Assembly: GCA_965369835.1 (NCBI GenBank)
Contig: CBDUSE010000001.1
Coordinates: forward strand, 4,393-68,392
Direction: 5' to 3'
DNA length: 64,000 nt
DNA from: an uncultured bacterium
GTDB taxonomy: Bacteria > Auribacterota > JABMQX01 > JAFGEW01
Part shown: positions 5,884-25,520 of the stretch, one piece after another
Layout of the letters: every line of letters starts with the position of its first letter
Position numbering within the stretch: position 1 is the first letter of the stretch
Position numbers and translations under genes: made by a program
Notes under the pieces: generated by a model
The model's database searches: none
Told to the model about the DNA's origin: nothing
What the model saw: only the letters and a program-made list of their open reading frames with translations

Positions 5884-5927
5884 AGTGCCTCCTCGTGTGG
5901 CTCCGGTCACGCCTGCCGGCCCTCGCC

Positions 5928-6491
5928 TCATGGGCTCTCCCGCTTGAGGAGCACCACCTCGTCTATGCCGTCCACCTCGACGAGGCTCACCTGCACGTCC
6001 TCGCCGCGCATGGTCGGGACATTCTTGCCGACGATGTCGGCGCGGATGGGGAGTTCGCGATGGCCGCGGTCAATGAGCACGGCGAGCATGATGCGGCGCG
6101 GACGGCCGAAGTCCATAATCGCGTCGAGCGCGGCGCGCACGGTGCGGCCGGTAAAAAGCACGTCGTCCACGATGACGAGGTCCCTGTCGGTCAGGTCGAA
6201 GCCGAAGTGGGTGCTTTTGACCTCGGGCTGGTCGAGCCGAGTGCCGAGGTCGTCGCGGTAGAACGTGATGTCGAGTTCGCCCACGGGCGGCTCGAGGTCG
6301 CAGACGGACTGTATGTTGGCCGCAGTGCGCTGCGCGAGCGGCACCCCGCGCACGTGGATGCCAATGAGGCCGAGGGACGCGACGTCGTCGTGTTTCTCCA
6401 CAATCTCGTGCGCCATTCGCATGAGCGTGCGGGACATCTGCGTGGCGTCAACAAGCTGGACGCGCGTCGTGCCGGTATCAGGATTGCCCAT
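5928..6491 (-). CDS. pyrR: Bifunctional pyrimidine operon regulator / uracil phosphoribosyltransferase PyrR
   Basis: 187 aa. Shows the PRTase motif [12 protein letters not shown] and a PyrR-like N-terminus. It is the first gene of the pyrR-pyrB-pyrC-carA operon. Confidence 0.88.
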
Positions 6492-7857: not shown

Positions 7858-9447
7858 CTATTGATCCTCTTTGTGGCCGGCCTCTTCCTTCAGGATGATC
7901 CAGTCGAAGCCGGCTTCCGGCGGGAACTCGACCCAGATCGTGAAGATCGTGAAGCCGTGCTCGGTAAGCACGCGACCGAGCTCGAGCAGGCGGTCGGGCG
8001 CCTCGGGTCGGTGGCGGAAGAACATGACGGAGGCGCAATCGCGGTCGTCCACGACGCGGTACATGAACGCGGGTTCACCTTGGGGGTTGGCAATCATCAG
8101 CTCGGGTGGCGGCTTGATCTTCTCGAGCTTCTCTGCGCGTGCGAGCACCTCGAACAGAACGAGCTCACCCTCAGCCTTGCCGACGTACACTTTCTTGTCG
8201 GCGTCGTGAGCATTGATGTTGCGTGCATGCTCGCTCAGGCGCTCGGACTGCCGCCGGAGCAGCACGGAGCAGGCGTGGAGCCGTCCGCTCGGGAAGCGCG
8301 TCCTGTGGTGGAACGGGAGTGCGAGGAAGCTCACGGCCGCGACCGCGCCGACGATGACGACGCGCACAGCAGTGGCTAGCCGTGGCGGCCTGAACTGCCA
8401 GATTGCGCCCGCCACGAGCATGAAGAGGGTGAAGTAGGCCGGCATGTTGTGCCGAGCGCTGTTGCCGCGGATGACCATCCAGAACAGAATGAGCGGCAGC
8501 GCCCACAGGAGCGCGAATGCGACGAGCCGGCGGCGTTTCTTGACGATCAGGACCACGAGGCCGACAAGTGCGGCGGGCACGGCCGCCACGCCGCCGCCGA
8601 TCAGCAGGGCGCGCACGTTGTAGAGCCACGCCTCACCGTCGAGGCCGATGAAGAAGTGCGACGACCAGTTTCCGACGAATCCCGCCGCCGACGCCTCACC
8701 GCGGGAGAGAAAGAGCTGCGGGAGCAGCGCGCACACGATGCCGGTGGCGAGCCCGATCAGGGCGACCCATCCGGTCCGGCGCCACATCCGGCGCCCGTCG
8801 AGGAGCACGAGGCCAAGCATCGCCCCGCCGCACAGGAGCACGTCGGCCTTGGTCAAGCCGGTGAGCACGAAGAGCAACCACGCGGGCGCGAGCCACGCGA
8901 GTGGCCGTTTCGCCGTAAGCGCCGCGTCGAAGAGCACCAAGCCCCAGAGGAAGAAAGCGTAGGCGGGCATGTGGGGCATGCCGTAGATGCTCCCTTGCCA
9001 GACGGCCGGAGTAAGCAGCGTGAGGCCGACCGCCGCGCCGGCGCCCTCCCAGGGCAGGAACCGCCTCGCCAGCAGGTAGAGCGCCCCCGCGATCGTCGCA
9101 CCCGCTACCGCGCTGAGCCAGTTCATCCACGCGGGCAGTTGCGCAGGGGTCGCAACGCCCGAGCTGATGAGCGTTCTGAGCCACAGCACGTAGAGCGGGC
9201 TTGAACGGACGCGGTAGTCGGCCCAGTCCGAGCCGCTGAGCCGGCCGGTCAGGCGCCAACGGATCGCGTCGTTGGCGAGTCGCGCTGCGTCCGATTCGCC
9301 GAACGAATGGCGCAGCACGTAAGGGGAGTGAACGGCAAAGGTGGCGAGGATCAGCGCGAGCACGATGACTCGGTCGAGCCGGTGCACGCGGCGGCACGCG
9401 GAGATCGGCGCGTGCAGGCTCGGGGCGGCGGTGTCGGCGCTCGTCAC
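7858..9447 (-). CDS. Polytopic membrane protein with GT-C-like (ArnT/PMT-type) glycosyltransferase features and a C-terminal soluble domain
   Basis: 529 aa, more than 10 hydrophobic helices in the N-terminal 400 aa and an acidic first-loop region (FGESDAARLANDAIRW). Family assignment is tentative. Confidence 0.35.
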   Translation of the reverse strand: MTSADTAAPSLHAPISACRRVHRLDRVIVLALILATFAVHSPYVLRHSFGESDAARLANDAIRWRLTGRLSGSDWADYRVRSSPLYVLWLRTLISSGVATPAQLPAWMNWLSAVAGATIAGALYLLARRFLPWEGAGAAVGLTLLTPAVWQGSIYGMPHMPAYAFFLWGLVLFDAALTAKRPLAWLAPAWLLFVLTGLTKADVLLCGGAMLGLVLLDGRRMWRRTGWVALIGLATGIVCALLPQLFLSRGEASAAGFVGNWSSHFFIGLDGEAWLYNVRALLIGGGVAAVPAALVGLVVLIVKKRRRLVAFALLWALPLILFWMVIRGNSARHNMPAYFTLFMLVAGAIWQFRPPRLATAVRVVIVGAVAAVSFLALPFHHRTRFPSGRLHACSVLLRRQSERLSEHARNINAHDADKKVYVGKAEGELVLFEVLARAEKLEKIKPPPELMIANPQGEPAFMYRVVDDRDCASVMFFRHRPEAPDRLLELGRVLTEHGFTIFTIWVEFPPEAGFDWIILKEEAGHKEDQ

Positions 9448-12180: not shown

Positions 12181-12861
12181 CTAGAAGGTGGTCACCCAGT
12201 TGAGGCGAATGGTGATCGTGTCTTCGGCGCCGTCCACCGTGGTCCACGTGTACCAGCTCTCGAGCACGAAGTGCAGCGGCAGCCCGTACTCGAAGCCCGC
12301 GCTCACGAGCCACTCGTCCCCGTCGTCGGTCTGGAGCACGTCGAGCCCGACGGTGGCGGGCAGCTCGAGGAAGTCGAAGCTGGTGTCCACGCCGGCGAAG
12401 AAAGCCTCGTCCTCGTCTTGGAAGCTGTAGCCGAGGTGGCCGCGCACGGGGCCGAAGTCGTGCATGGCAACGAGATAGGGATCAATGTTGCCGTTCTTGT
12501 CCTCGTCGTCGGTCACGTTCTGGATGCCGAAGCCGACGTTCGGGAGCCCTTCGCCGAGTGGGTAAACGAGCTTGCCGAAGAAGCGGATGTCGCCCTGGTC
12601 CTCGTCCGTCGGGCCGAGCATGCCGTAGATGCCGACCTCGGCGTAGTCGAGGATGCCGACGTTGACGACGCCCCACCAGTCGGGCTCCTCGCCTTTGCCG
12701 GTGGTGACCCACGTCGAGATCTCGAAGCTCCGCCACGCCAGGACCTCGGCGATCGGTATGTCGTTCAGATTGGTCCCGGGGTTGCCGGGCGCGACCGTCC
12801 ACGCGAGCGCCACGCTCAGGCAGACAGCGACCAGCACCGGGTTGCGAATCGTTCGAGCCAT
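12181..12861 (-). CDS. Small secreted outer-membrane beta-barrel protein
   Basis: Signal peptide MARTIRNPVLVAVCLSVALAWTVAPG, alternating amphipathic strands, Asp/Gly-rich loops and a C-terminal ...NWVTTF ending in Phe. Confidence 0.45.
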   Translation of the reverse strand: MARTIRNPVLVAVCLSVALAWTVAPGNPGTNLNDIPIAEVLAWRSFEISTWVTTGKGEEPDWWGVVNVGILDYAEVGIYGMLGPTDEDQGDIRFFGKLVYPLGEGLPNVGFGIQNVTDDEDKNGNIDPYLVAMHDFGPVRGHLGYSFQDEDEAFFAGVDTSFDFLELPATVGLDVLQTDDGDEWLVSAGFEYGLPLHFVLESWYTWTTVDGAEDTITIRLNWVTTF

Positions 12862-13181: not shown

Positions 13182-13197
13182 TGGCAACGTCCTTGCT
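13182..13197 (+). promoter_or_regulatory. Sigma54 (-24/-12) promoter TGGCAA-N5-TTGCT
   Basis: GG and GC elements are exactly 10 nt apart, about 100 nt upstream of the PAS-HisKA gene. Confidence 0.5.
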
Positions 13198-13297: not shown

Positions 13298-13996
13298 ATG
13301 GCCATCATGCGGCGTTGGGAAAACCACGAGCAAGACCTGACCAAGTCAGCCCCCGGGCCCGATGCGGAGGCAAAACGCCTGGCCGAGCTCGAGGAAACCG
13401 CGAGGCGTTATCGCGAGCTCAAAAGGGCCATAGGCGACATGATGTTTGTCGTGGACGGCAGGGGACGCTTCCTCGACGTGAACGAGCGCTTCACGCGGCG
13501 CCTTGGGTACGGCGCATCCGAGCTCTTTGAGATGAAGCTCTACGAGGTGGTCGAGGACGAGGCTGAGGATCCCCGCCAGAGGATGATGCCGTTCTTCGCG
13601 CGCAGCGGCGGTCGCCAGACGTTGCGGGCCAAGAACGGCGAGCGAATGCACGTCCTTGTCAGCTCCGTGGGGCGCTACGACGAAGTGGGACAGTTCGCGG
13701 GGGCACTGGTGGTGTGCCGCGACGTTTCGGACGACAAGGGGAACGCCGAAGCGATCGTCGAGGCGGCCCAGGAGATGAACCAGCCGCTCTCGGGGATCTA
13801 CGGGTACTCGGAGCTGCTGAAAGGCAGCGTCGGCCCGCGTGATCCGGCGTATCGGTACGCGAGAAAGATCTACGAGCAGAGTGAACGGCTTGCCTCGCTT
13901 GTCAAGCGGATCAAGGCCGAGCAGGGCGTGCCTCCCAGCGGGCTTGCGTCAGGCAAGCAGCCCAACAAGCGGGAGAAAGAGGAGGACCATCCATGA
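13298..13996 (+). CDS. PAS domain plus HisKA (dimerisation/phosphoacceptor) protein lacking an HATPase domain
   Basis: Start chosen at MAIMRRWENHEQ. A PAS-like segment is followed by the H-box EMNQPLSGIYGYSELL. The ORF ends about 60 aa after the H-box with no N/G1/G2 boxes. Confidence 0.55.
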   Translation: MAIMRRWENHEQDLTKSAPGPDAEAKRLAELEETARRYRELKRAIGDMMFVVDGRGRFLDVNERFTRRLGYGASELFEMKLYEVVEDEAEDPRQRMMPFFARSGGRQTLRAKNGERMHVLVSSVGRYDEVGQFAGALVVCRDVSDDKGNAEAIVEAAQEMNQPLSGIYGYSELLKGSVGPRDPAYRYARKIYEQSERLASLVKRIKAEQGVPPSGLASGKQPNKREKEEDHP

Positions 13997-14385
13997 GTGG
14001 GCGCATCAGGGTGCTAGTGGTTGATGATGAGAAGATCATCCGTGAGATCATCGAGGACATCCTCGCTTGCGAGGGGGACGACGTGGAAGTGGTGGGAGTC
14101 GGCACGTGCGACGAAGCGCTGCAGCAGGTTCGGGAGCAGGAGTTCGATGTGATCTTCCTCGACGTGTGCATGGACGAATGCGACGGCGTCGAGCTGCTTC
14201 GCCGGATCAAGGAGTTTAGGCCGGACCCCCACATCTATATGATCACCGGCTATCAAGTGGATGACCAGATCCGGACCGCCCTCGCCGAGGGTGCCGCCGG
14301 GGCAATTCACAAGCCTTTCAAGGTCAGGGAGATTCTCGCGGTCCTGCCCGGAGCGTCCTCGGAGCCTGCGCCGCTCTCAGAATGA
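13993..14385 (+). CDS. Single-domain CheY-like response regulator receiver
   Basis: 130 aa. Shows VLVVDDE, the phospho-acceptor D in FLDVCMDECDG, and the K box (HKPF). The ATGA start overlaps the upstream stop. Confidence 0.8.
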   Translation: MSGRIRVLVVDDEKIIREIIEDILACEGDDVEVVGVGTCDEALQQVREQEFDVIFLDVCMDECDGVELLRRIKEFRPDPHIYMITGYQVDDQIRTALAEGAAGAIHKPFKVREILAVLPGASSEPAPLSE

Positions 14386-14573: not shown

Positions 14574-14589
14574 TGGCATGTTCTTTGCA
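14574..14589 (+). promoter_or_regulatory. Sigma54 promoter TGGCAT-N5-TTGCA (near-perfect consensus)
   Basis: GG-N10-GC spacing is exact. Located 37 nt upstream of the ATG of the PseG-like gene. Confidence 0.55.
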
Positions 14590-14625
14590 TGACTCGCAGC
14601 CCGTGCGGTACGCATCGCGTGAGGA

Positions 14626-15654
14626 GTGGGGATGCAACGTTCCGTTGTGATTCGGGCAGATGGGGGTCATCAAATCGGCACCGGGCACTTCGCTAGAATG
14701 TTCCGTCTCGCCGATCGCTTCAACCAATCGGGCAGTACGGTGACGTTCGTGTCACAATCGCTCGACGGATGCGCCGGCCTGTTCGAGAGGCGCAGCCACG
14801 AACTTATCCTCCTCCCCCCCATCTCCGAAGGCTCGAGCGCGCAGGCGGCTTCTGCGGTCGGCGCGCTCGAGCCTGATCTTATTCTAAACGACGTCCGGGA
14901 CACTTCGGACGACTACATGCGCGCGCTCCGCGCCGGCGGCGCGCGAATCGTCAACTTTGACGACTGGGGCGCCGGCGCGGCGCTGGCGGACCTGCTGGTG
15001 GACGCCAACCGCCTGCCTGAGGAGACGGACGATGGAGCGAACCCCCGCGTGCTTTTCGGGCCGGACTACATCGTGCTCGACGAGGCGTTCGAGCAGGCGC
15101 ACGGCCGGCCGAAGCCCATCCGCGGGCGGGTCGAGGAGTTCCTGGTTTTCATGGGCGGCAGCGACCCGGCGGGCCTGACGCTCGAGGCGCTGCGGGCGAT
15201 CGAGCTGCTCGAACCGGAGTGGCATACGACCGTCGTGCTCGGCTACGCCTTCCAAGACCGCGCCGAGGTGGAGGCGTTAGCGGCACGCTGCCGGAACGCG
15301 GAGGTCGTCGCCGGGGCGGACGACCTAGCGCCGAGAATGCACGGGGCCGACATGGCGCTCTCATCGGGCGGGATCGCAATGTTCGAGCTCGCGTGCGTGG
15401 GCACACCCTCGATCGTCCGGTGCCAGGTGCCGCACGAGCTCGAGAATGCGCGGCTCTTTGCCGATCGGGGCATCGTCCGATGCCTTGGGCTCGGCAGCGG
15501 TCTGGGGGCCGAGGCGGTGGCGCAAGCGCTCAGCGCGCTGGCGGCCGACGCTGCGGCGCGCCGGGCGATGAGCGAGGCGGGCAAACGGACCGTTGACGGG
15601 CGCGGACTGAGCCGTGTGATGGAGGCAATCGAACAGTGCGTCCAGCAATCATGA
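14626..15654 (+). CDS. PseG-like (MurG/GT28 C-terminal fold) UDP-sugar hydrolase / glycosyltransferase
   Basis: N-terminus VVIRADGGHQIGTGHFARMFRLA matches the PseG/GT28 signature (IRADAS..IG.GH..R). 342 aa. Confidence 0.6.
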   Translation: MGMQRSVVIRADGGHQIGTGHFARMFRLADRFNQSGSTVTFVSQSLDGCAGLFERRSHELILLPPISEGSSAQAASAVGALEPDLILNDVRDTSDDYMRALRAGGARIVNFDDWGAGAALADLLVDANRLPEETDDGANPRVLFGPDYIVLDEAFEQAHGRPKPIRGRVEEFLVFMGGSDPAGLTLEALRAIELLEPEWHTTVVLGYAFQDRAEVEALAARCRNAEVVAGADDLAPRMHGADMALSSGGIAMFELACVGTPSIVRCQVPHELENARLFADRGIVRCLGLGSGLGAEAVAQALSALAADAAARRAMSEAGKRTVDGRGLSRVMEAIEQCVQQS

Positions 15655-16868
15655 TCGTTGGGGCCGGCATCCTTCAGGAGCCGGCCATTCGAATCGCGAA
15701 GTCGCTCGGCTACGTGGTGATCGCCACGGACATCGTTCCCACCGCGCCCGGCCTACGCTGGGCCGACCGTGCCGGCATGGTCAGCAAGTTCGACGTCGAG
15801 GGGCACGTGCGCTTCGCGAAGGCGTGCTGCAAGGAGTTCGACCTGCGCGGCGTGCTCACGATCGGGACCGATGCCTCGTGCGCGGTCGCGGGCGTCGCTT
15901 CGGCGCTCAACCTGCCCGGCGTGGATCCGCGCACCGCGTTTATGGCGACGCACAAGGCGGCGATGCGGCGGCGGCTCAGGCAGTGCGATGTGCCCTGCCC
16001 GGACTTCCGCGAGGTGCGCCAGCTCGGCGAGGCGCTTTCGGCCGCCAAGGCGATCGGCTACCCGCTCGTCATCAAGCCGGTGGACAATATGGGCGCACGC
16101 GGCGTGCGGCGCATTGATACGCCCGAGGAGCTGCGCGACTTTTTCCCCGTCACGATCTTCAACAGCCGGGAGGGGGGCGCCGTTGTCGAACAGTACATGG
16201 AAGGGCCCGAGGTGAGCATTGACACGATCGTCGAGAACGGCGAGGTGCACCTGCTCACGATCGCCGACCGCCACATCACGAACGCGCCGTACTTCATCGA
16301 GGTCGGCCACACGCTTCCCTCGGCGCTGTCGCAGGACGTGCTCGACGACGTGTTCGAGGTGATGCGCCTCGGCATCGAGGCGCTGGGTATCATGACCGGC
16401 GCCTCGAAGGGCGATATCAAGATCACAGCCGGGGGGGCGAAGATCGGGGAGATGACCGCCCGTATGAGCGGCGGCTTCCACTGCCAGTACACCGACCCGC
16501 TGGCGACGGGGATGAACTCGATTAAGGCGGCCATTGACCTCGCGCTCGGCCATCGGCTCGACCTCGCGGACGTCACGCCGCGCTGGCATCGCGCCGCCGC
16601 CGAGCGGGCGATCCTCGCCGGGCCGGGTGTAGTCACGGTGATCGAGGGCGTGGACGAAGCGCTGCAGATCCGGGGCGTCGAGCACGTTTTCCTCAACGTG
16701 AAGGAAGGGAGTGTCGTGGCGCCGTTGACGAGCAACATGGGCAAACCCGGTCACGTGATTACGTCGGGCGAGACGCGCGCTCAGGCGATCGCGGCGGCCA
16801 ACCGTGCGCTGGAAACCATCCGGATCATCACTGCGCCGGTTACCGAGAAGGCGGCGGCCCACTCATGA
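15636..16868 (+). CDS. ATP-grasp domain ligase (sugar or amino-acid ligase in the glycan pathway)
   Basis: A pre-ATP-grasp region is followed by an ATP-grasp core (GYPLVIKPVDNMGARGV, EQYMEGPEVSIDTIV). An alternative start at 15651 (ATGA overlap) is possible. Confidence 0.6.
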   Translation: MRPAIMIVGAGILQEPAIRIAKSLGYVVIATDIVPTAPGLRWADRAGMVSKFDVEGHVRFAKACCKEFDLRGVLTIGTDASCAVAGVASALNLPGVDPRTAFMATHKAAMRRRLRQCDVPCPDFREVRQLGEALSAAKAIGYPLVIKPVDNMGARGVRRIDTPEELRDFFPVTIFNSREGGAVVEQYMEGPEVSIDTIVENGEVHLLTIADRHITNAPYFIEVGHTLPSALSQDVLDDVFEVMRLGIEALGIMTGASKGDIKITAGGAKIGEMTARMSGGFHCQYTDPLATGMNSIKAAIDLALGHRLDLADVTPRWHRAAAERAILAGPGVVTVIEGVDEALQIRGVEHVFLNVKEGSVVAPLTSNMGKPGHVITSGETRAQAIAAANRALETIRIITAPVTEKAAAHS

Positions 16869-16874
16869 GGGCCG

Positions 16875-17885
16875 ATGCGTGAGGGCTCACGTGTGAGCTG
16901 GAAGCGAAAAAGAGTTCTGGTCACCGGCGCCGGCGGCTTCATCGGGAGCCACCTCGTCGAGGCGTTGGTGCGTCGCGGCGCGAGGGTGCGCGCGTTTGTC
17001 CATTACAACTCGCGCAACGACTGGGCGCAGCTCGAGCGTGTGCCCCGCTCCGTGCTCGGGAACATCGAGGTGGTGGCCGGCGACGTGCGCGATCCGTTCT
17101 TTGTGAGGACGGCGGTCGAAGGGTGCGAGGTCGTTTTCCACCTCGCGGCCCTCATTGCGATCCCGTACTCGTACCAGGCGCCGCAGAGCTTCGTCGAGAC
17201 GAACGTGCTCGGCACGCTCAACGTGCTCGAGGCGTGCCGGGCGGTGGGCGTGGTACGGATGGTGCACACCTCGACGAGCGAGACCTACGGCACGGCCGAG
17301 CGCGTGCCGATGGATGAGACCCACCCGTTGCACGCGCAGTCGCCGTACGCGGCGAGCAAGATCGGGGCGGACACGCTCGTCGAGAGCTATGTGCGCTCGT
17401 ACGGCGTGCCGGCGGTGACGGTGCGGCCGTTCAACACCTACGGACCGCGCCAGTCGGCGCGGGCCGTGATCCCGGCGATCGCCACGCAGACGCTCGCTCG
17501 ACGCAAGCGGATTGCACTCGGCTCGCTCACGCCGGTCCGGGACTTCAACTACGTGAGCGACACGGTGCGCGGCTTTCTCAGCGTGGCCGAGCTCGACGAC
17601 GCGTCCGGCGAGGTGTTCAACGTCGGCACGGGCAAGGGGGTGGCGATCGGCGAGGTGGGCCGCGCGATCATTGATCTGTGCGGCAACGGGGCGCGCCTCG
17701 TCCGCGACGAGCAGCGCGTGCGGCCCGATTCGAGCGAGGTAATGCACCTTGTCTGCGACAGCTCGAAGCTGCGGACGTGCACGAGCTGGCAGCCACAGGT
17801 CTCGTTGCACGAGGGGCTCGAGCGCACGGTCGAGTTTGTGGCCCGACACCTCGGCGCATACAAGGCGGACCTCTACAATGTGTAG
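16875..17885 (+). CDS. NAD-dependent NDP-sugar epimerase/4,6-dehydratase (extended SDR family)
   Basis: VLVTGAGGFIGSHLVEAL Rossmann motif and a catalytic YAASK (YxxxK). An alternative GTG start near 16896 is possible. Confidence 0.8.
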   Translation: MREGSRVSWKRKRVLVTGAGGFIGSHLVEALVRRGARVRAFVHYNSRNDWAQLERVPRSVLGNIEVVAGDVRDPFFVRTAVEGCEVVFHLAALIAIPYSYQAPQSFVETNVLGTLNVLEACRAVGVVRMVHTSTSETYGTAERVPMDETHPLHAQSPYAASKIGADTLVESYVRSYGVPAVTVRPFNTYGPRQSARAVIPAIATQTLARRKRIALGSLTPVRDFNYVSDTVRGFLSVAELDDASGEVFNVGTGKGVAIGEVGRAIIDLCGNGARLVRDEQRVRPDSSEVMHLVCDSSKLRTCTSWQPQVSLHEGLERTVEFVARHLGAYKADLYNV

Positions 17886-17894
17886 GCAACGCGT

Positions 17895-18608
17895 ATGAAA
17901 GCGGTTGTGCTCGCCGGTGGCAAGGGAACGCGGCTCCGGCCCTACACGGCCGTGCTGCCGAAGCCGCTTGTGCCTGTTGGCGACACACCGATCCTCGAGA
18001 TCATCCTCTCGCAGCTCAGCCGTGCCGGTATGACCGACGTGACGATCACCGTCGGCCATCTCGCCTCGCTGATCGAGACCTTTTTCGGCGACGGCAGCCG
18101 GTTCGGTCTCCGCATCGAGTACTTCCGCGAAGAGACCCCGTTGAACACCGTCGGCTCCCTGCCGCTTATTGACGAGCTGACCGAGCCGTTCCTCGTCATG
18201 AACGGCGACGTACTGACCGATATTAATCTCGACAAGCTCGTCGCGTTTCACCGCGAGAAGCGGTGCATTGCGACGATCGCCACGGCGCCGCGCGAGCAAA
18301 AGGCGGACTTCGGCGTCGTGCGGTGGGACGGCGACACGCGGATCGTCGAGTTCCTCGAAAAACCGATGTCGCGCTATCACGTGAGCATGGGCGTGTACGT
18401 CTTCTCGCACGCCGTGCTCGAATATATTCCCTCGGGCAAGCCCTTCGGCTTTGACGAGCTGATGCGGGTGATGCTCGAGGCCGGCGAGCGGGTCTTTTCC
18501 TACCCGCACGACGGCTACTGGCTCGACTTGGGCCGGCCCGATGACTACGAACGCGCCATCGAGGATTTCGCTCGGATGCGGGAGCATTTCGTGGGAGCGC
18601 AACCATGA
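17895..18608 (+). CDS. Sugar-1-phosphate nucleotidyltransferase (RfbA/RfbF-like)
   Basis: MKAVVLAGGKGTRLRPYT...LPKPLVPV is the NTP_transferase signature. Confidence 0.8.
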   Translation: MKAVVLAGGKGTRLRPYTAVLPKPLVPVGDTPILEIILSQLSRAGMTDVTITVGHLASLIETFFGDGSRFGLRIEYFREETPLNTVGSLPLIDELTEPFLVMNGDVLTDINLDKLVAFHREKRCIATIATAPREQKADFGVVRWDGDTRIVEFLEKPMSRYHVSMGVYVFSHAVLEYIPSGKPFGFDELMRVMLEAGERVFSYPHDGYWLDLGRPDDYERAIEDFARMREHFVGAQP

Positions 18609-19786
18609 CGTGGGCGGTGCCATTGGCGGGCCTCGACTTCGATGAGGCGGAAGCGCGCGCGGTCCTCGACGTGCTCGAGAGCAAGTGGCTCACGATGGGT
18701 CCGGTGACCGAGCGCTTCGAACACGCGTTCGCCTCGGCCGTTGGCGTGCGCCACGCGGTGGCGGTCTCGAACGGCACGGCCGCCCTGCACCTCGCCTGCC
18801 GCGCGCTGGGAATTGGTCCCGGTGACGAGGTGATTGTGCCGTCGTTGACCTTCGTGGCGACGGCGAACGCGGTGGTCTACTGCGGGGCGACGCCGGTCTT
18901 TGCCGATATCACATCCGAGGACGATTGGACCGTTTCGCCAGACGATATCGAACGGCGCATTACCGATCGGACAGTGGCGATCATCGTGATGCACTACGGT
19001 GGTTACCCGTGCGATATGGCCGCGATCCTCGACGTGGCGCGCCGCCACGGCGTGCCGGTGATCGAGGACTGCGCCCACGCCCCGCTGGCGCGTCTCGATG
19101 GGCGCGTGGCCGGCACGTTCGGCGCGATCGGCTGTTTCAGCTTCTACACGAACAAAAACCTTGCGGTGGGCGAGGGCGGCATGCTGGTGACCGACGCCGC
19201 TGCGCTCGCTTCTCAAGCGCGCCTTATGCGGTGCCACGGCCTGTCGAGCGTGTGCGCCGATCGGCACCGTGGCGCCGGGCCGCTCTACGACGTGACCGAG
19301 CTTGGGTACAACTACCGGCTCGATGAGATGCGCGCGGCGATCGGGCTGGTGCAGCTCGACAAACTCGCCCGGAATAACCGGCGCCGTGGCACGCTCATGG
19401 CGCGATACCGCGAATTGATCTCGGGCATCGAGGGGGTGCGGCTCCCGTTCGCCACGCCGCGAGGCGAGCCGGCGCACCACATCTGTCCTGCGCTGCTCGA
19501 TGAGGATGTGGATCGGCAACGGTGCATCGAGGGGCTGCACGAACGCGGCATCCAGACGAGCGTGCACTACACGCCGGTTCACTTGTTCCGCTACTACCGC
19601 GAGCGGTTCGGCAGCGGCGCGGGCGAGTTGCCGCTGACCGAGGGGGTCGCGGCACGTGAGATTACGTTGCCATTACATCCGCTCCTGACCGAGCAGGAGG
19701 TGAGCGAGGTTGTCCGAGCGCTCGGGGAAGCGCTCGACGCGCGGCGGCACGCGCCGCCGCCACAGGGAGCGGTTGTTGTTGCTTGA
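18605..19786 (+). CDS. DegT/DnrJ/EryC1/StrS-family PLP-dependent sugar aminotransferase
   Basis: Matches the DegT family throughout (AVSNGTAALHLA, FSFYTNKNLAVGEGG with the PLP lysine, GYNYRLDEMRAA). ATGA overlap with the upstream gene. Confidence 0.85.
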   Translation: MTWAVPLAGLDFDEAEARAVLDVLESKWLTMGPVTERFEHAFASAVGVRHAVAVSNGTAALHLACRALGIGPGDEVIVPSLTFVATANAVVYCGATPVFADITSEDDWTVSPDDIERRITDRTVAIIVMHYGGYPCDMAAILDVARRHGVPVIEDCAHAPLARLDGRVAGTFGAIGCFSFYTNKNLAVGEGGMLVTDAAALASQARLMRCHGLSSVCADRHRGAGPLYDVTELGYNYRLDEMRAAIGLVQLDKLARNNRRRGTLMARYRELISGIEGVRLPFATPRGEPAHHICPALLDEDVDRQRCIEGLHERGIQTSVHYTPVHLFRYYRERFGSGAGELPLTEGVAAREITLPLHPLLTEQEVSEVVRALGEALDARRHAPPPQGAVVVA

Positions 19787-19955
19787 GGCCCGAGGGTCGA
19801 GTTGCGCGTGATGCGCCCAGCTTGGCCAGGGGGATTCGATTCCCGAGGGTCGGTCGGAGCAGTTCGGAGGTCAGTTGCGCAGCAGGCATGGGGGGATGCC
19901 GTGTTGATTCTCCGTGCTGGTCTCAGGGTTATTCGTGAAAGAAAAGGGGAACCTG

Positions 19956-20690
19956 ATGACCACGAAGCAGGAGCGTCTCATCGTTCTTGGACGTCTCTCT
20001 TCCGTGCTCGCCCACGAGATCCGAAATCCGCTGGCCGGCATTAGTGCGGCAATACAGGTGCTCGGCGGAAAGATTGCGGAAGCGGATCCGCGGAGGAAGT
20101 ACGTCGGCATGATCCTCAAGGAGGTCGAGCGCGTCAACGACATCGTGAAGAACCTGCTCGACTTCTCGCGCGAGGGCCGGGCGTACATGATGCCGGCGCG
20201 TGTCCGCACGCTCGTCGAGCATGCGCTCGAGCAGTTCGCCCGGCAGTGCGAGCACGCCGGCATCCATGTCGAGACCGATCACGACGACGACCTGCCCGTT
20301 GTCGTGTGCGACGTGGAGCAGATGGGGCGGGTCTTTCGCAATCTCATCGCGAACGCCGTTGACGCGATGCCCCGAGGCGGCACGCTGACGGTGCGGACCG
20401 CGCATAACGCGGCGACGGGGCAGGTCGCCGTCAGCTTCGAGGACACGGGCATCGGCACCGACGTAGCGGATCTGGGCGAGCTCTTCTCACCGTTCTACAC
20501 GACCAAGACGAAGGGGAACGGGCTTGGTCTGCCCGTGGCGCTCAAGTGCATCGAGGAACATGGGGGAACGATCACCGCGCAGCGCGGGGAGCCGTGCGGA
20601 TTGACGATGGTTGTCCAGTGGCCCGTCAAGCCACTCAACGAGGCGGGCACCCCGAACAATGCAGCACAGACGACGCACCTTATCGGCTAG
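19956..20690 (+). CDS. Cytoplasmic sensor histidine kinase core (HisKA + HATPase), FlgS-like
   Basis: H-box LAHEIRNPLAGI lies about 15 aa from the N-terminus. N, G1 and G2 boxes are present (NLIANAVDAM, DTGIG, GNGLGL). No TM or sensor domain. Confidence 0.8.
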   Translation: MTTKQERLIVLGRLSSVLAHEIRNPLAGISAAIQVLGGKIAEADPRRKYVGMILKEVERVNDIVKNLLDFSREGRAYMMPARVRTLVEHALEQFARQCEHAGIHVETDHDDDLPVVVCDVEQMGRVFRNLIANAVDAMPRGGTLTVRTAHNAATGQVAVSFEDTGIGTDVADLGELFSPFYTTKTKGNGLGLPVALKCIEEHGGTITAQRGEPCGLTMVVQWPVKPLNEAGTPNNAAQTTHLIG

Positions 20691-20702
20691 ACAGGGGAGA
20701 GT

Positions 20703-22067
20703 ATGGACACGTCTATTCTTATCGTTGATGATGAAGAGGCGATTCGCCTCTCGCTGACCGAGGCGCTCAGCGACGAGGGATATACGGTCATCGCGGCCGC
20801 CTCAGGCGAGGAGGCGATCGCCCTTGTGCGCCGTAGACGCCCGGACCTTATGTTGCTTGACATGAAGCTGCCGAAAGCGAGCGGCATGGAGGTGCTCAAG
20901 CAGGCGAAGAAGATCCAGAACGACATCGTGGTGATTATCATGACCGCGTTCGCCGACGTCGCCAGCGCGGTCAAGTGCATGAAGCGCGGCGCCTACGACT
21001 ACCTGAACAAGCCGTTCAGTCTCGACGCGCTCAAGCTCGTGGTCCGCAAGGCGCTCGAGACGCTCTCGCTCAAGAAGGAGCTCTCGATCGTGCGCGAGCG
21101 CGCGCAGCGCGATTTTGAGGCCGATTTTATCATCGGTGAGAGCTCGAAGATGCGTAAGGTCTACGAATACGTCAAGCGCGTGGCCCGCAGCAACTCCTCG
21201 ACGGTGCTCGTTCAGGGCGAGAGCGGCACGGGCAAGGAGCTCATCGCGCGGGCGATCCACTACTTGAGCTTTCGGCACGACAAGATGTTCGTTGACTTCA
21301 ACTGCACGGCCGTTCCGGAGGCGCTTGTGGAGAGCGAGCTCTTCGGGTTCGAGAAGGGCGCCTTCACGGATGCGAAGCACCAGAAGACGGGCTTGTTCGA
21401 ACTGGCGGACAAGGGCACGCTGTTCCTCGACGAGATTGGCGACATGAGCTATCACCTCCAGGCGAAGCTCTTGCGGGCGCTGCAGGAGCGTTCGTTCACC
21501 CGCGTCGGTGGCATCTCCAAGATCCACGTGGACATCCGCATCATCGCCTCGACGCACCGCGACCTGAAGGCCGCGATGGCCGCTGCGAAGTTCCGCGAGG
21601 ACCTCTACTACCGACTCAACGTGGTACCGATCTCGCTGCCGCCGCTTCGCGATCGCGGCCCGGACATCCTGCTACTGGCGAAGCACTTCATTGACCGCTT
21701 CAATCGCGAGTTCAAGAAGAACGTCTACAAGATGGCGCCCGAGACAGAGCAGCTCATGCTCGGGTACCATTGGCCGGGCAATGTGCGCGAGCTGCAGAAC
21801 ACCATCGAACGGGCCATCCTGCTCGAGTGTGACGACGTGCTCTTGCCTGAGCACCTGCTGTTCGCCGAAGCTGAGACCACGCCGGCACCGGAGAGCTCGC
21901 CCGTACCAAGGGCCACCGACATGACCCTCGACGATGTTGAGAAGGAGTACATCCTCCGTGTGATCGAGGCGGTCGGCTGGAACAAGAACCGCGCGGCGAA
22001 GAAGCTCGGCATTGATCGCACCACCCTCTATACTAAGATCAAGAAGTACAGTCTCGCGCGCACGTGA
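20703..22067 (+). CDS. Sigma54-dependent response regulator (NtrC family; REC + AAA+ sigma54-activator + Fis-type HTH), FlgR/FleR-like
   Basis: Receiver domain, GESGTGKE Walker A, the GAFTGA-type loop (EKGAFTDA), ESELFGFEKGAFT, and a C-terminal HTH (NKNRAAKKLGIDRTTLYTKI). Confidence 0.9.
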   Translation: MDTSILIVDDEEAIRLSLTEALSDEGYTVIAAASGEEAIALVRRRRPDLMLLDMKLPKASGMEVLKQAKKIQNDIVVIIMTAFADVASAVKCMKRGAYDYLNKPFSLDALKLVVRKALETLSLKKELSIVRERAQRDFEADFIIGESSKMRKVYEYVKRVARSNSSTVLVQGESGTGKELIARAIHYLSFRHDKMFVDFNCTAVPEALVESELFGFEKGAFTDAKHQKTGLFELADKGTLFLDEIGDMSYHLQAKLLRALQERSFTRVGGISKIHVDIRIIASTHRDLKAAMAAAKFREDLYYRLNVVPISLPPLRDRGPDILLLAKHFIDRFNREFKKNVYKMAPETEQLMLGYHWPGNVRELQNTIERAILLECDDVLLPEHLLFAEAETTPAPESSPVPRATDMTLDDVEKEYILRVIEAVGWNKNRAAKKLGIDRTTLYTKIKKYSLART

Positions 22068-22266
22068 TGTCCCGAATCTCGACGGGTTGTCGGAATTGCC
22101 GACAAGCGTGCGACCGTTCAATCACTGAACGTACGCTGGCCGGTTGGACCGACGGTTCTCGTCGAAGAATGCCGCCGGAGTGACCGGTCTCTCTTTCCTG
22201 TGTTGCCCCACCCCATCGCGTCTGCGCTCGGCGTGTGCGTTCGGTCCGAGTGTGTCGCTTGGTGCT

Positions 22267-22282
22267 TGGTACAGAAGTTGCT
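22267..22282 (+). promoter_or_regulatory. Sigma54 promoter TGGTAC-N5-TTGCT
   Basis: GG-N10-GC spacing is exact. The -12 element lies 38 nt upstream of the lipoprotein ATG at 22320. An adjacent 6-bp-stem palindrome GTTGCTCAAAGCAAC overlaps it. Confidence 0.5.
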
Positions 22283-22760: not shown

Positions 22761-22850
22761 CAACCTCCGGGAGCCCGAGCGGTTTTGCGCAGCAACGAAG
22801 CCTCCTCCCAGCGAAGCGTCTGTGAACCTGGGCGACGAATCGAGCGGGCA

Positions 22851-24359
22851 ATGAAGGGATCAATCCTGATCGTTGATGACGAGGCCACTCTGGCCGAGAC
22901 GATCCGTGACTATTTCGTCGCGGATGGCCTCGACGCTGCGTGCGTACAGTCGGCCGAAGAGGCCCTGGAGTTCGCTCGTGCGCGGCAGTTCCATGTGGTC
23001 GTCACCGACATGAAGATGCCCGGGATGAGCGGCATTGATTTGCTGCGCGCGCTCGGGGAAGCGCCGGACCCGCCGTCGGTCATCCTAATGACCGCCTACG
23101 GGACAATGGAATCCACTGTTGAAGCATTCCGGCTCGGGCTGTTCGATTTTCTGCAGAAACCGGTCTCACTCGACGAGCTGAGCAAGAGCGTCGAGCGCGC
23201 ACTCAACGCGCGCGCCTCGCGGGTCAACGACACCCCGCTGCCGGTGCCTCTACACGTGTTGCGCGAGCGCTCGCGCCGTGTCGGTGCCGTGCGGGCCGAG
23301 GTGGCGGGCGACTCCTCGGCCGCCCAGGCGACGGCGGTCTGGCGGCTGCGCGCGCTTGATCGGCAGCGGGCGGGCTTTGTGTGGGCACACGTGGCACCAG
23401 GCAGTCGGTTCGCGGTCGCCGCTCGCTTGGTCATCAGGACGCTGGCGGACGCGCTTGACCTCGGTGCGCCCCGCGAAGCGCTCGAGACGATTATGCGTCA
23501 TTTGACGGACCTCGACTGTGGCTCCACGTTGCGCGCGCTTGCTGTCGGCGTGGTTGAGTCGGAACCGAGCCGTCGCCTCTATGGCGCCGCGCTTGGCCAT
23601 GCCGGGCTCTTCCGCCTCGACGCGAGCGGTTCGGCTCCCGAGTCCCTCGCGGGCGGGCCGCGGGACGCCACGCGCACGTGGGAGGCGAGCCTGGCGCCGG
23701 AAGATGTATTGCTGCTCGCCGACCCGCGCTTGGTGTCGGCGGCGGCGGAGCGCTGGTCCGACGTGCTCGCGGCGACCAGGAAGCTGATTGCGGAGGGCGA
23801 GCCGAACCCGGCGCGGCGGGCGCTCGCGATGGTGCCCGAAGTCGCCGGCGAAGCGCCGGTCGTGATCGCGCTTCGCCTCGGCAAAGCGATCCGGCCCGAC
23901 GGGCTGACGCATGTGCGCGTCTCATCGAACCGGGCAAGTCTCGGTCACGTGCGCGACGTGGCGGAGCGGTTCGCGCTTGGCGTGCCGCTCAGTGGGCAGG
24001 CGGCTCACGAGGTGGTGACCGCAGTTCAGGAAGCGGTGCTTAACTGCATGCGCTGGGCCTACGCGGGCGGGGAGGGCCCCGTTTGCCTAACGCTCTCGTG
24101 CGAGGGCGGGCGCATGCGGGCGAGCGTGCGCGACCGCGGTCTCGGCTTCGATGTGGGCGAGACCTTCCGCCGCACGAGCGATCCGTCACAGGACCCGCTG
24201 CGGCGCTCGGGCCGTGGCCTGATGCTGATGCACCGGCTCGCGGACCGGTTCGAACTGACTTCAAGACCGGGCCGCGGCACGAACGTCGTGTTGGAAAAGG
24301 ACTTCGACGCGCCGTTCACCGACGGCGCCGACGAGCGAGAGGCCGAGCAGGTGCGATGA
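22851..24359 (+). CDS. Fusion protein: REC receiver, then a PP2C/SpoIIE-like (apparently degenerate) phosphatase domain, then an RsbW/SpoIIAB-like anti-sigma serine kinase (HATPase_c_2)
   Basis: N-terminal ILIVDDE...VVVTDMKMPGMSG...LQKP is the receiver. The middle region has an RsbU-like layout (LYGAALGHAGLFRL, DVLLLADPRL) but lacks the canonical GD.SGHG metal site. The C-terminus (VTAVQEAVLNCMRWAY...GRGLMLMHRLADRFEL) is RsbW-like. Confidence 0.55.
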   Translation: MKGSILIVDDEATLAETIRDYFVADGLDAACVQSAEEALEFARARQFHVVVTDMKMPGMSGIDLLRALGEAPDPPSVILMTAYGTMESTVEAFRLGLFDFLQKPVSLDELSKSVERALNARASRVNDTPLPVPLHVLRERSRRVGAVRAEVAGDSSAAQATAVWRLRALDRQRAGFVWAHVAPGSRFAVAARLVIRTLADALDLGAPREALETIMRHLTDLDCGSTLRALAVGVVESEPSRRLYGAALGHAGLFRLDASGSAPESLAGGPRDATRTWEASLAPEDVLLLADPRLVSAAAERWSDVLAATRKLIAEGEPNPARRALAMVPEVAGEAPVVIALRLGKAIRPDGLTHVRVSSNRASLGHVRDVAERFALGVPLSGQAAHEVVTAVQEAVLNCMRWAYAGGEGPVCLTLSCEGGRMRASVRDRGLGFDVGETFRRTSDPSQDPLRRSGRGLMLMHRLADRFELTSRPGRGTNVVLEKDFDAPFTDGADEREAEQVR

Positions 24360-24745
24360 ATCGAAGCGCGTTAGGGCACGACGATAAGCCGGTGGTGGTA
24401 GCAGTCATAGACGAGCTGGTGTTCGAGTCGGCCGAGCCGGCGGAGCAACTGCACGAGCTGCTCCGGGCGGGCACGTGCCGCATCGTGCTCGACTTGCGGC
24501 AGGCGACGTATGTCTCGGGCGTTGGTCTTGGCCTTGTGGCGGACGTGGCGAAGCAGGCGCGGCGAGGCGGCGGCGACGTGAAGCTCGTCGTGCACGGCTC
24601 CGAGGTGCGCCGCGTGTTCGAGCTCGGCGAGCTCGATTCGCTACTCGAGTTCTACGATGACATCGAGAGCGCGTGCAACGCCTTCACCGACTCCGTCGGC
24701 GAGGTGGAGCGCACGCTCTTGTGGCGGCAGTTTGACGATGAGTGA
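24356..24745 (+). CDS. STAS-domain anti-sigma-factor antagonist (SpoIIAA/RsbV-like)
   Basis: 129 aa with STAS pattern (VVVAVIDELVFESA...RIVLDLRQATYVSGVGLGLVADVAKQARRGGGDVKLV). The ATGA start overlaps the kinase stop. Confidence 0.7.
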   Translation: MNRSALGHDDKPVVVAVIDELVFESAEPAEQLHELLRAGTCRIVLDLRQATYVSGVGLGLVADVAKQARRGGGDVKLVVHGSEVRRVFELGELDSLLEFYDDIESACNAFTDSVGEVERTLLWRQFDDE

Positions 24746-25520
24746 GACACAAGCAGACAACACCGACGCGCCGGCACAAGTCACTCAGGCGCCCGCGCAA
24801 GTTGGCGGTGGCACACCGGTCGAGGTGATGCCGCTGGAGGCGGCTGAACTGGCCGCCGGCGCGCGGCAGCGTCGTCGCAGGCTTGTGCTGTATTTCGCCG
24901 CGCCCGCGATCGTGATCGGTCTCGTAATCACCGCGACGCAGGTGAAGCTGGGCGGGCGCTCGGGGGCGAGGTCGCCGGTTGTGCGCGACTGGGAATCGGG
25001 CATGGCACTGATCGAAACAGGGCGAATATCGAAGGGGCTCGAAACGCTCGAGAACGTGGTGACGCAGCTTCCGAAAGGGCCGGAACGCATCCGGGCGTAC
25101 GTGCGCCTCGCTGAGGTCTACTGCATGCTCGGTGAGAACGAGCCGCACTACCTGAACTCAGCTATCCGCCACTATGCGACCGTGCTTGATTCGGCCGGCG
25201 ATGCCGCGTCGCTCGATGGCGCTGTGACGGTTGACGAGTTGCTCTACGAGACCGGCCGCTGCTTTGTCGCCCTCGGCTCGTACGAAACGGCGCTCGAGTT
25301 TTTCGAGCAGATTGACGTCGAGTTCCCTGCGAGCCTCTTCAGGCCGCAGGCGCGACTTGAGATCGGTGAGAGCTACCTGGCGATCGGCCAGTACCAGCGG
25401 GCGCGCCGGGTGCTTGCCGAGGTGGCCGAGACGTACCGGGGCGATCCACTTGGCGAGAAGGCCTTCTTCCGTTTCGCCGATTCCTTCGACGAGCAGGCCG
25501 GATTATTGAGGGGAGAGTGA
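24738..25520 (+). CDS. Membrane-anchored TPR-repeat protein
   Basis: One TM helix (LVLYFAAPAIVIGLVITAT) followed by TPR-like repeats. Confidence 0.5.
   Translation: MSETQADNTDAPAQVTQAPAQVGGGTPVEVMPLEAAELAAGARQRRRRLVLYFAAPAIVIGLVITATQVKLGGRSGARSPVVRDWESGMALIETGRISKGLETLENVVTQLPKGPERIRAYVRLAEVYCMLGENEPHYLNSAIRHYATVLDSAGDAASLDGAVTVDELLYETGRCFVALGSYETALEFFEQIDVEFPASLFRPQARLEIGESYLAIGQYQRARRVLAEVAETYRGDPLGEKAFFRFADSFDEQAGLLRGE

Follow-up and report, generated by a model that had tools for sequence, protein, structure and literature searches.

The DNA analyzed here is a stretch of 64,000 nucleotides from an uncultured bacterium (contig CBDUSE010000001.1; "the window" means this whole stretch), in which five consecutive sugar genes (g1 to g5; 14632-19786, plus strand) lie within a long array of flagellar genes. 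We propose that these genes probably form a sigma-54-dependent operon which makes the hexose-stage half of a legionaminic- or pseudaminic-type nonulosonic acid for the flagellum, and that g2, an ATP-grasp ligase, takes the place of the usual acetyltransferase. We infer the glycan itself, and flagellin as its target, from the genes. The legionaminic/pseudaminic-type pathway is known and its product is probably used on flagellin; the new part is an ATP-grasp ligase in the acyltransferase slot together with a conserved sigma-54 promoter.

Enzymes of the sugar operon

The junctions between the five genes are -4 (or -19 if g2 starts at its GTG), +6, +9, and -4 nucleotides, so the spacing is compatible with a single operon. 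Third-position GC is 0.82-0.90 for all five genes. An earlier note on this DNA had listed them as a PseG-like enzyme, an ATP-grasp ligase, a dehydratase or epimerase, a sugar-1-phosphate nucleotidyltransferase, and a DegT-type aminotransferase, and domain scans against Pfam and NCBIfam bear out all five assignments.

The first gene, g1 (14632-15654, plus strand; 340 amino acids), encodes a protein with the GT-B fold that belongs to the PseG/SpsG family of nucleoside diphosphate (NDP)-sugar hydrolases. It scores 146.0 bits against the NCBIfam model for PseG (TIGR03590, cut-off 153.55) and 24 bits against MurG; because it falls below the curated cut-off, we assign it to the PseG/SpsG family and not as a PseG equivalog. 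The Pfam scan gave no match for g1. When we compared a profile of 31 members of the g1 family to the Protein Data Bank (PDB), C. jejuni PseG (3HBM) matched over its full length (E = 5e-33, residues 5-287 to 2-269), whereas MurG matched with the C-domain only (4e-13). These comparisons place g1 on the PseG side of the PseG-or-MurG question that the earlier note had raised, and we rule out MurG. g1 also keeps an N-terminal R-x-D-x4-IGxGH motif, whose IGTGH aligns with IGFGH of 3HBM, so that the equivalent of His17 is retained. Rangarajan et al. are said to have identified His17 in 2009 as the catalytic base of C. jejuni PseG. MurG has a histidine in that loop as well, so the retained histidine of g1 is supportive only.

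Some remote homologues of g1 are PseG proteins that carry a fused GNAT domain (PseH) or cytidylyltransferase (PseF), and one that is 33% identical to g1 adjoins NeuB. Several close homologues are annotated as "SpsG" by JGI. Because the homologues are PseG-PseH or PseF-PseG fusions or neighbors of NeuB, we place g1 in a family with a nonulosonic-acid synthesis context, and g1 is most likely a hydrolase rather than a transferase.

The second gene, g2, runs from 15651 (ATG) or 15636 (GTG) to 16868 on the plus strand, and the ATG start overlaps the stop codon of g1 (ATGA). g2 is an ATP-grasp carboxylate-amine ligase. The earlier note had left its subfamily to be assigned; it is of the L-amino-acid-ligase type, with Pfam matches above the gathering scores to LAL_C2 (72.6 bits, cut-off 29.4) and ATP-grasp_4 (55.3 bits, cut-off 27). 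The best relative with a solved structure is the L-amino-acid ligase BL00235 (3VOT, E = 5.6e-31). The stop-start overlap of g1 and g2 is kept across phyla, and it parallels the PseG-PseH fusions among the remote homologues of g1. We propose that g2 is the N-acylating enzyme that replaces PseH or LegH: it is the only enzyme in the front operon that lacks an assignment, and N-acylation is the only pathway step that lacks an enzyme.

The third gene, g3 (16875-17885, plus strand), encodes a LegB-like, NAD-dependent 4,6-dehydratase for NDP-linked N-acetylhexosamine (HexNAc). It matches the LegB model TIGR04180 over the full model length (437.8 bits, E = 1.6e-131), below the cut-off of 475. The next-best family is dTDP-glucose dehydratase, at 181 bits, and PseB scores only 58 bits. 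The translation shows GxxGxxG, STSE, and YxxxK motifs. Because g3 is LegB-like, the front end resembles the legionaminic-acid route and not the dTDP-viosamine route. The earlier note had named an O-antigen pathway such as dTDP-viosamine as the outcome that would count against it; we rule this out, given the scores for g3 (438 bits for LegB versus 181) and the lack of Wzx/Wzy or an initiating transferase nearby.

The fourth gene, g4 (17895-18608, plus strand), encodes a short sugar-1-phosphate nucleotidylyltransferase (Pfam NTP_transferase, 156.6 bits). Its best NCBIfam match is mannose-1-phosphate guanylyltransferase-like (181.6 bits, below the cut-off), and its best matches in the PDB are UTP-glucose-1-phosphate uridylyltransferase and GMPPB, so they are split between guanylyl- and uridylyl-transferases. 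The fifth, g5 (18605-19786, plus strand), encodes a pyridoxal-phosphate-dependent nucleotide-sugar 4-aminotransferase of the DegT family (Pfam DegT_DnrJ_EryC1, 396 bits). Among NCBIfam models, g5 scores 342 bits for PseC (cut-off 423.5), 311 for ArnB, and 248 for LegC. In the PDB, ArnB is the best match (E = 1e-80), perosamine synthetase is among the top matches, and PseC is lower in the list. The match to ArnB led us to consider a route like that of L-Ara4N, which we rule out as g3 has just 45-54 bits on the ArnA/UXS decarboxylase models. Overall, a LegB-like g3, a 4-aminotransferase g5, and a ligase-type g2 support the suggestion of the earlier note that an NDP-4-amino-4,6-dideoxy sugar is made and then N-acylated by the ATP-grasp enzyme.

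The probable distal half of the pathway and related loci

Another contig in our collection (L176), which we found via a glycosyltransferase of family GT2 (62383-63144), is 100% identical to window positions 52383-64000 over 11,618 nucleotides and extends 9.1 kb further. (Positions beyond 64000 are given as window equivalents.) L176 encodes a CTP_transf_3 protein of 393 amino acids (64190-65371, plus strand), 0.2 kb past the end of the window, whose first ~120 residues match models of KdsB (CMP-Kdo synthetase). A NeuB-family synthase with the Pfam domains NeuB and SAF follows, 1.5 kb past the end of the window (65463-66509, plus strand). It scores 366 bits against NeuB_NnaB (TIGR03569, cut-off 399.65) and 318 bits against PseI (cut-off 340.25). 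Further along are a gene for an HDOD protein and then flgM (72448-72756). Because the cytidylyltransferase and NeuB belong to the contig of the window and are flanked by fliA and flgM, we view the pathway as a split nonulosonic-acid route and not as one without NeuB, and we infer that these distal genes act in the same pathway as g1-g5. The earlier note had stated that there is no NeuB/PseI-type synthase in the window and that the enzyme set is non-canonical. The first statement holds, as six-frame tblastn with NeuB, CMP-transferase, Maf, and flagellin queries found no match in the window; the second does not, given the two genes just past its end.

Across the 73 kb of the two contigs, nucleotidyl transfer, 4,6-dehydration, 4-amination, NDP removal, condensation with phosphoenolpyruvate, and CMP activation each have a single candidate. 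Among the scanned proteins of the window and the called genes of L176, no protein has a Pfam match to an acetyltransferase (GNAT or hexapeptide-repeat) or to a NeuC-type epimerase. So, if g2 fills the acyltransferase slot, then every canonical step has exactly one candidate.

In the proposed pathway, g4 would activate a HexNAc-1-phosphate, giving an NDP-sugar (the LegB-like partner suggests GDP), g3 would dehydrate it to a 4-keto-6-deoxy sugar, and g5 would aminate C4. g2 would make an acyl-phosphate from a carboxylic acid, either an amino acid or a hydroxy acid, and amidate the 4-amino group; in known pathways this is the step of the acetyl-CoA-dependent PseH or LegH. g1, which is translationally coupled to g2, would then hydrolyze the NDP bond to give free 2-acetamido-4-acylamido-2,4,6-trideoxyhexose. 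About 45 kb downstream, the NeuB-family synthase would condense the freed sugar with phosphoenolpyruvate, the cytidylyltransferase would activate the product as a CMP-sugar, and a transferase would place it on flagellin.

The distal genes are part of a glycan cluster between fliA and flgM. On the plus strand, it contains a GT-B glycosyltransferase (59213-60331), a radical SAM/SPASM protein (60328-61320), another GT-B glycosyltransferase (61320-62435), the GT2 enzyme mentioned above, and a second radical SAM/SPASM protein that starts at 63176 and is cut by the end of the window (it extends to position 11780 of L176). The two radical SAM/SPASM proteins are thus interleaved with glycosyltransferases close to the CMP-transferase and NeuB, and a radical SAM gene is also found near the related genes in two Auribacterota loci (L005 and L022). 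These proteins may tailor the sugar. Between NeuB and flgM are four genes of the hexuronate-metabolism type (positions 14450-19096 of L176, equivalent to 66832-71478), which is an odd place for catabolic genes. They encode an SDR (short-chain dehydrogenase/reductase) similar to mannonate oxidoreductase (327.5 bits, cut-off 281), a Zn-dehydrogenase, UxaE, and KduI. These genes might supply a sugar acid as the acyl donor for the ATP-grasp ligase.

We found relatives of g2 at 560 sites in the genome collection and 516 in the metagenome collection, and a PseG-like gene adjoins them in only two groups. In the first group, the Verrucomicrobiota type, the gene order is PseG-like, ATP-grasp, SDR, nucleotidyltransferase, DegT, kinase, and activator. 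The nearest named relatives of the window belong here: they are contigs from metagenome-assembled genomes titled Verrucomicrobiota, with the same gene order and with ATP-grasp proteins that are 77-81% identical to g2. In the second group, from Auribacterota, Omnitrophota, and UBP3, identity is 49-55% for the ATP-grasp proteins; for the PseG-like proteins it is 28-34% to their best-matching homologues of the Verrucomicrobiota type. The neighbors of this second type of pair are two Maf (MptE-like) genes, a DegT aminotransferase, a GH57-like protein, and an NHL protein, and FlgM is nearby in one locus (L009). Maf enzymes are known flagellin nonulosonic-acid transferases (PMC7591256). In 15 loci, the GH57-like protein (760-800 amino acids) directly follows the PseG-like/ATP-grasp pair and is beside Maf (as at 12797-15163 of L004 and 11209-13488 of L005). 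We rejected the SDR near the Auribacter locus as an ortholog of LegB, as it is 25% identical to g3 and was clustered with it by single linkage only.

Two more distant variants with lower GC content lack parts of the cluster. L093 keeps the SDR, the nucleotidyltransferase, the kinase, and the activator but not DegT or the sigma-54 motif, and L102 keeps only the PAS-HisKA protein, the receiver domain, and the PseG-like and ATP-grasp proteins. Because the PseG-like/ATP-grasp pair is retained in both while other genes are absent, we consider the pair to be the stable core.

ATP-grasp relatives from spirochaetes (L027, L038, L075, and about 60 other loci) are 44-49% identical to g2. Most of them are fused to an FMN-dependent 2-hydroxy-acid dehydrogenase domain, and they form a separate enzyme family. 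Their neighbors include glpX, thiolase, acyl-CoA dehydrogenase, and alanine racemase, so we do not use them as informative orthologs; because they are mostly fusions in contexts that are neither sugar-related nor flagellar, we treat them as paralogs. On a contig from an uncultured Treponema, a relative of 536 amino acids (41% identical) is encoded between flaB and flaA, with genes for a CMP-transferase and a methyltransferase next to it.

A predicted sigma-54 promoter, the regulators and the flagellar array

Upstream of g1, at 14574-14589 on the plus strand, is an exact match to the -24/-12 pattern of sigma-54 promoters (TGGCATGTTCTTTGCA, or TGGCAT-GTTCT-TTGCA). The pattern TGGCAY-N5-TTGCW has exactly two matches on both strands of the 64 kb, where 0.08 are expected, and none of 100 shuffled sequences reached two. 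The motif ends 36 nucleotides before a potential GTG start for g1 (14626) and 42 nucleotides before an ATG (14632). The ATG is the better-supported start, with a GGAG ribosome-binding site and the same call in two independent assemblies. The second exact match (30673-30688, plus strand) is 15 nucleotides upstream of flgB (30703), which begins the flgB-flgC-fliE-fliF operon. As judged from this match, the sugar operon and the flagellar basal-body genes share a promoter class.

We aligned 11 upstream regions, representing nine distinct sequences, from loci whose g1 proteins are 66-73% identical. TGGCA and TTGC are invariant in all nine, at a constant 58-59 nucleotides from the ATG. The alignment also favors 14632 as the start of g1. 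Apart from the ribosome-binding site and the ATG, this is the only invariant promoter-like block, and the rest of the intergenic DNA is poorly conserved, so we interpret the motif as a phylogenetic footprint and not as a chance match. The motif is missing from the regions upstream of the more distant variants L093 and L102. In three loci of the Auribacterota/Omnitrophota/UBP3 type (two distinct sequences), TGGTATATTA[AT]TTGCT, which is of the TGGTAT-N5-TTGCT type, lies ~100 nucleotides upstream of the PseG-like gene. Thus the claim of a sigma-54 promoter in the earlier note is borne out by the exact match, its rarity in the window, and the footprint in nine distinct loci. The promoter is predicted to depend on RpoN, although rpoN was not seen within the 73 kb of contig sequence. 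Transcription would start near 14600 and would need an enhancer-binding protein, most likely the regulator encoded at 20703-22067.

That regulator (plus strand) is a sigma-54 enhancer-binding response regulator with REC, AAA+, and HTH_8 domains (Sigma54_activat, 235.6 bits). It follows a gene for a sensor-less cytoplasmic histidine kinase with HisKA and HATPase_c domains (19956-20690, plus strand). The kinase/activator pair comes directly after the sugar genes in each Verrucomicrobiota-type locus that reaches that far, and also in L093 despite its differing wider genomic context. The earlier note had described this pair as FlgS/FlgR-like, which we could not establish: the activator scores 489 bits for AtoC and 334 bits for Campylobacter FlgR (cut-off 750), so the pair is of the generic NtrC/AtoC type. 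The second-best family for the activator is a PEP-CTERM exopolysaccharide regulator (438 bits, below the cut-off). The window encodes two proteins with Sigma54_activat, and the other one (29238-30629) is near the flgB promoter. From its adjacency, we expect that the 20703-22067 regulator drives the promoter at 14574, with the 29238-30629 activator as the alternative.

We found no convincing terminator between g5 and the kinase gene. This gap contains a sigma-70-like element (19782-19813), with CTTGAG overlapping the stop codon of g5, a spacer of 18 or 19 nucleotides, and a TATGAT-like sequence, which is moderately or partly conserved in seven related loci. So, the kinase/activator pair may have its own promoter besides read-through.

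Two more regulatory genes precede the sugar operon on the plus strand. The first (13298-13996) encodes a protein with PAS and HisKA domains (by Pfam) and no ATPase domain, and was called in L001, whose gene calls we mapped to the window by an offset (window = L001 + 11381). It is the upstream neighbor in most Verrucomicrobiota-type loci and in L102, so the protein is possibly part of the regulatory module. The second (13993-14385) encodes a stand-alone response-regulator receiver domain (Response_reg, 94.5 bits), which is present in L002, L012, L096, L097, L100, L101, and L102 and was not detected in L098, L099, or L163. A PAS-HisKA protein without an ATPase domain and a sensor-less kinase thus flank the sugar operon, and the two may form a split or multi-component phosphorelay.

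One-mismatch sites of the sigma-54 type occur on the plus strand at 13182-13197, 22267-22282, and 46939-46954, which is upstream of the PAS-HisKA gene, a gene for a coiled-coil protein of 145 amino acids, and fliO, respectively. Because these sites precede further genes, the region looks like a multi-operon sigma-54 regulon. We looked for upstream activator sites common to the sugar promoter and the other sigma-54 sites and found none that was convincing for the sugar promoter. The 9-mer TTCTCGTCG occurs eight times where 1.4 are expected, although codon bias inflates the number of coding copies. The sites include 22156-22164, 46860-46868, and 59123-59131, with 22077 and 46878 also listed. Three copies are intergenic: they are upstream of the sigma-54-like sites before the 145-amino-acid gene and fliO, and in the divergent promoter region between a TPR (tetratricopeptide repeat) gene and a GT-B gene. 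TCTCGACGG accompanies two of these three. TTCTCGTCG may be a binding site for a regulator.

Our map of the window was built from third-position GC and from the Pfam and NCBIfam scans. All of the called genes from 13034 to 57196 are on the plus strand, from the sugar operon to flgN, flgB through flhA, flhF, and fliA. In this run of ~13.0-57.2 kb, the PAS-HisKA protein, the receiver domain, the five sugar genes, and the kinase/activator pair (19956-22067) are followed, before flgN, by the small coiled-coil protein, a receiver/anti-sigma-kinase-like protein and its STAS partner, and a pair of TPR proteins. The receiver is fused to an RsbW-like anti-sigma kinase domain (HATPase_c_2) and the STAS protein comes next (22785-24745); this is a partner-switching module amid the flagellar regulators. 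Next are flgN, a PAS kinase, and the second sigma-54 activator (27882-30629), and then flgB, flgC, fliE-fliK, flgD, flgE, motAB, fliL-fliR, flhB, flhA, flhF, flhG, and fliA, which ends at 56080. A TPR gene on the minus strand separates this run from the distal glycan cluster of two GT-B glycosyltransferases, two radical SAM/SPASM proteins, and one GT2 (59213-64000, plus strand). The location of the operon inside this co-directional array, the flgB-class promoter, and NeuB between fliA and flgM all support the flagellar link that the earlier note had suggested.

On the other side of the operon are genes on the minus strand. Pyrimidine genes are at 2406-6491. A protein of 529 amino acids (7858-9447) has a weak, sub-threshold match to PMT_2 (a membrane glycosyltransferase of the GT-C type), and a PMT_2 gene is also directly upstream of the PseG-like/ATP-grasp pair in L005, L006, and L023. 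A protein of 226 amino acids (12181-12861), just upstream of the operon, has no family match; it has tblastn matches in eight related loci (73-81% identity) and a gene call in L001-L003 as well. G+C content is 62-68% throughout the window and is the same in the sugar operon as in its flanks, so there is no sign that the operon was transferred recently.

Alternative explanations, known systems and significance

Several observations weigh against our proposal. g1, g3, g5, and the NeuB homologue all score just below the curated cut-offs of NCBIfam, so none is a certified equivalog; all of the organisms that carry the cassette are uncultured, and the pathway steps are predicted from homology. A distance of 45 kb separates the two pathway halves, and the distal one has no sigma-54 motif in front of it. 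There is no flagellin, Maf, or recognizable FlmG-type transferase within the 73 kb, and we did not find Maf or flagellin in the related Verrucomicrobiota-type loci either. We considered two proteins as FlmG-like transferases and rejected both: the 622-amino-acid protein at 25517-27385 matched only TPR families along its length, and the GT-B enzyme at 59213-60331 has only stand-alone GT-B homologues. Indeed, among the 120 best matches, the GT-B enzymes near NeuB have no TPR-fused homologues, only generic stand-alone ones. L093 and L102 show that the composition of the module is not fixed, and the spirochaete relatives of g2 are in unrelated contexts. Finally, the acyl donor, the nucleotide, and which of g2 and g1 acts first are guesses.

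The alternative that we take most seriously, though we consider it unlikely, is that an unlinked acetyltransferase performs the N-acetylation, while g2 forms an amide on a carboxylate, such as C1 of the nonulosonic acid, or makes a peptide or acid for later attachment. Carboxylates are what ATP-grasp ligases activate, and the sugar acid counts as one; we have seen only 73 kb of this genome; and L102 retains only g1 and g2 without the amine-forming enzymes. However, the overlap of g1 and g2 is kept across phyla and resembles the PseG-PseH fusions, and we detected an acetyltransferase in neither half of the pathway.

It is quite unlikely, in our view, that the nonulosonic acid goes to lipopolysaccharide, capsule, or an S-layer, so that the position in the array and the sigma-54 control would reflect shared regulation or chance. 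Nonulosonic acids are found on many glycans outside the flagellum, such as the spore crust of B. subtilis (PMC7439481) and the S-layer of T. forsythia, and the genes by NeuB encode generic GT1 or GT2 enzymes with widespread homologues. The PMT_2-like membrane protein at 7858-9447 and the exopolysaccharide regulator as the activator's second-best family could also fit this explanation. On the other hand, neither half of the pathway has a Wzx/Wzy, an ABC exporter, an initiating phosphotransferase, or a ligase nearby; both halves are within one co-directional flagellar array, with regulators and flgN to one side of them and fliA plus flgM to the other; and the cassette is linked to Maf in other phyla.

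We give even less weight to a product without a nonulosonic acid, in which an NDP-4-(acyl)amino-4,6-dideoxy-HexNAc would be transferred as such, and g1 would be the GT-B glycosyltransferase that attaches it to flagellin or to a glycan under construction. In its favor, the GT-B C-domain of g1 is complete and has matches to MurG and other transferases as well, g1 scores below the PseG cut-off, the Auribacterota-type loci have no NeuB within 10 kb, and in C. difficile an ATP-grasp_4 protein (CDR20291_0245), beside a DegT-type gene, is needed for a terminal peptidylamido sugar on flagellin (PMC5207246). Against it, g1 matches PseG over its full length and by 20 orders of magnitude more strongly than it does any transferase, the wider g1 family has ties to NeuB, PseH, and PseF, NeuB and a CMP-transferase are in the same array with no other candidate for the hydrolase, and Maf enzymes, which neighbor the cassette in other phyla, use CMP-ulosonic acids.

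Returning to a nonulosonic acid that is acylated by g2, the locus can be compared to known systems. It resembles the CMP-legionaminic acid pathway of C. jejuni (PtmE, LegB, LegC, LegH, LegG, LegI, and LegF) in having a dedicated nucleotidyltransferase, a LegB-type dehydratase, and a 4-aminotransferase ahead of a NeuB-family synthase and a cytidylyltransferase, and in its link to the flagellum (in C. jejuni, the flagellin glycosylation locus). C. jejuni LegB uses GDP-GlcNAc (PMC7439481). Here, unlike in C. jejuni, an ATP-grasp ligase stands in for LegH and a PseG/SpsG-type hydrolase for LegG (a hydrolyzing 2-epimerase of the NeuC type), the pathway is split between the ends of a flagellar array, no Maf was seen, and g3 and g5 fall below the cut-offs for LegB and LegC.

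The sps pathway of B. subtilis (SpsM, SpsC, SpsD, SpsG, SpsE, as well as SpsF) likewise has NDP removal by the PseG/SpsG family, a NeuB-type synthase, and a CMP-transferase. SpsG, of the PseG family, is needed for the synthesis of legionaminic acid with a non-inverting dehydratase (PMC7439481). In contrast to our locus, the sps pathway has UDP-linked intermediates, an ordinary acetyltransferase (SpsD), the spore crust as its target, and control by sporulation; ours has an ATP-grasp enzyme, a LegB-like dehydratase accompanied by a nucleotidyltransferase of its own, a sigma-54 promoter, and a flagellar setting.

With the pseudaminic acid pathway of Campylobacter and Helicobacter (PseB, C, H, G, I, and F), the locus shares a PseG-family hydrolase, and PseC is the NCBIfam model on which g5 scores best. 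Many genomes have PseG and PseH side by side or fused, which the g1-g2 pair parallels, and flagellin is the target of pseudaminic acid in Campylobacter and Helicobacter. Unlike that pathway, there is no inverting dehydratase of the PseB type (58 bits versus 438 for LegB) and no PseH, and, for the NeuB homologue, the score on the NeuB model exceeds that on the PseI model.

Two other systems have ATP-grasp enzymes or unusual acyl groups. The type B flagellin locus of C. difficile (GT1-3, CDR20291_0244-0247) has an ATP-grasp_4 gene by a DegT gene and an amino sugar with an amide-linked peptide (PMC5207246); the requirement for the ATP-grasp_4 enzyme is genetic (PMC5207246). There, however, the sugar is a terminal hexose derivative and not a nonulosonic acid, and the locus contains neither PseG nor NeuB. 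FlaB of Treponema denticola carries a nonulosonic acid that is acylated with 2-methoxy-4,5,6-trihydroxyhexanoate (PMC13439194); this glycan combines a flagellin nonulosonic acid with a non-acetyl acyl group, as the one that we propose would. The ATP-grasp gene between flaB and flaA of Treponema may be linked to that glycan, although its product, at 536 amino acids and with no adjacent PseG-like partner, differs from g2. Given the C. difficile and Treponema cases, ATP-grasp enzymes already have a foothold in the tailoring of flagellin glycans. Our literature search found no ATP-grasp enzyme that has been biochemically characterized in a nonulosonic-acid route, and a full-text search found no paper on flagellin glycosylation in Verrucomicrobiota.

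Sialic-acid-like glycosylation of flagellin is well studied in a few pathogens. To our knowledge, the enzymes that install non-acetyl N-acyl groups on nonulosonic acids are mostly unknown. The locus overturns no current view, but it is a testable candidate for such an enzyme: a PseG/SpsG-type hydrolase is coupled translationally to an ATP-grasp ligase, the pair is conserved across at least two or three phyla, and one lineage wires this cassette to a sigma-54 promoter of the flagellar-rod-operon class.

As a long shot, the PseG-like/ATP-grasp cassette could be a general device for nonulosonic acids that carry a sugar acid or a 2-hydroxy acid at N7 instead of acetate. Here the acid would come from the hexuronate-type enzymes between NeuB and flgM, which could yield mannonate or 3-deoxyhexonate. 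If so, the glycan would be a relative of the nonulosonic acid on Treponema denticola flagellin, with its 2-methoxy-4,5,6-trihydroxyhexanoyl group; this would give the Treponema glycan a biosynthetic logic and would predict the same chemistry in bacteria of the PVC group. More broadly, if the biochemistry that we propose for g2 holds, then an ATP-dependent acylation route would be added to nonulosonic-acid biosynthesis, and glyco-engineers would gain a new tailoring enzyme.

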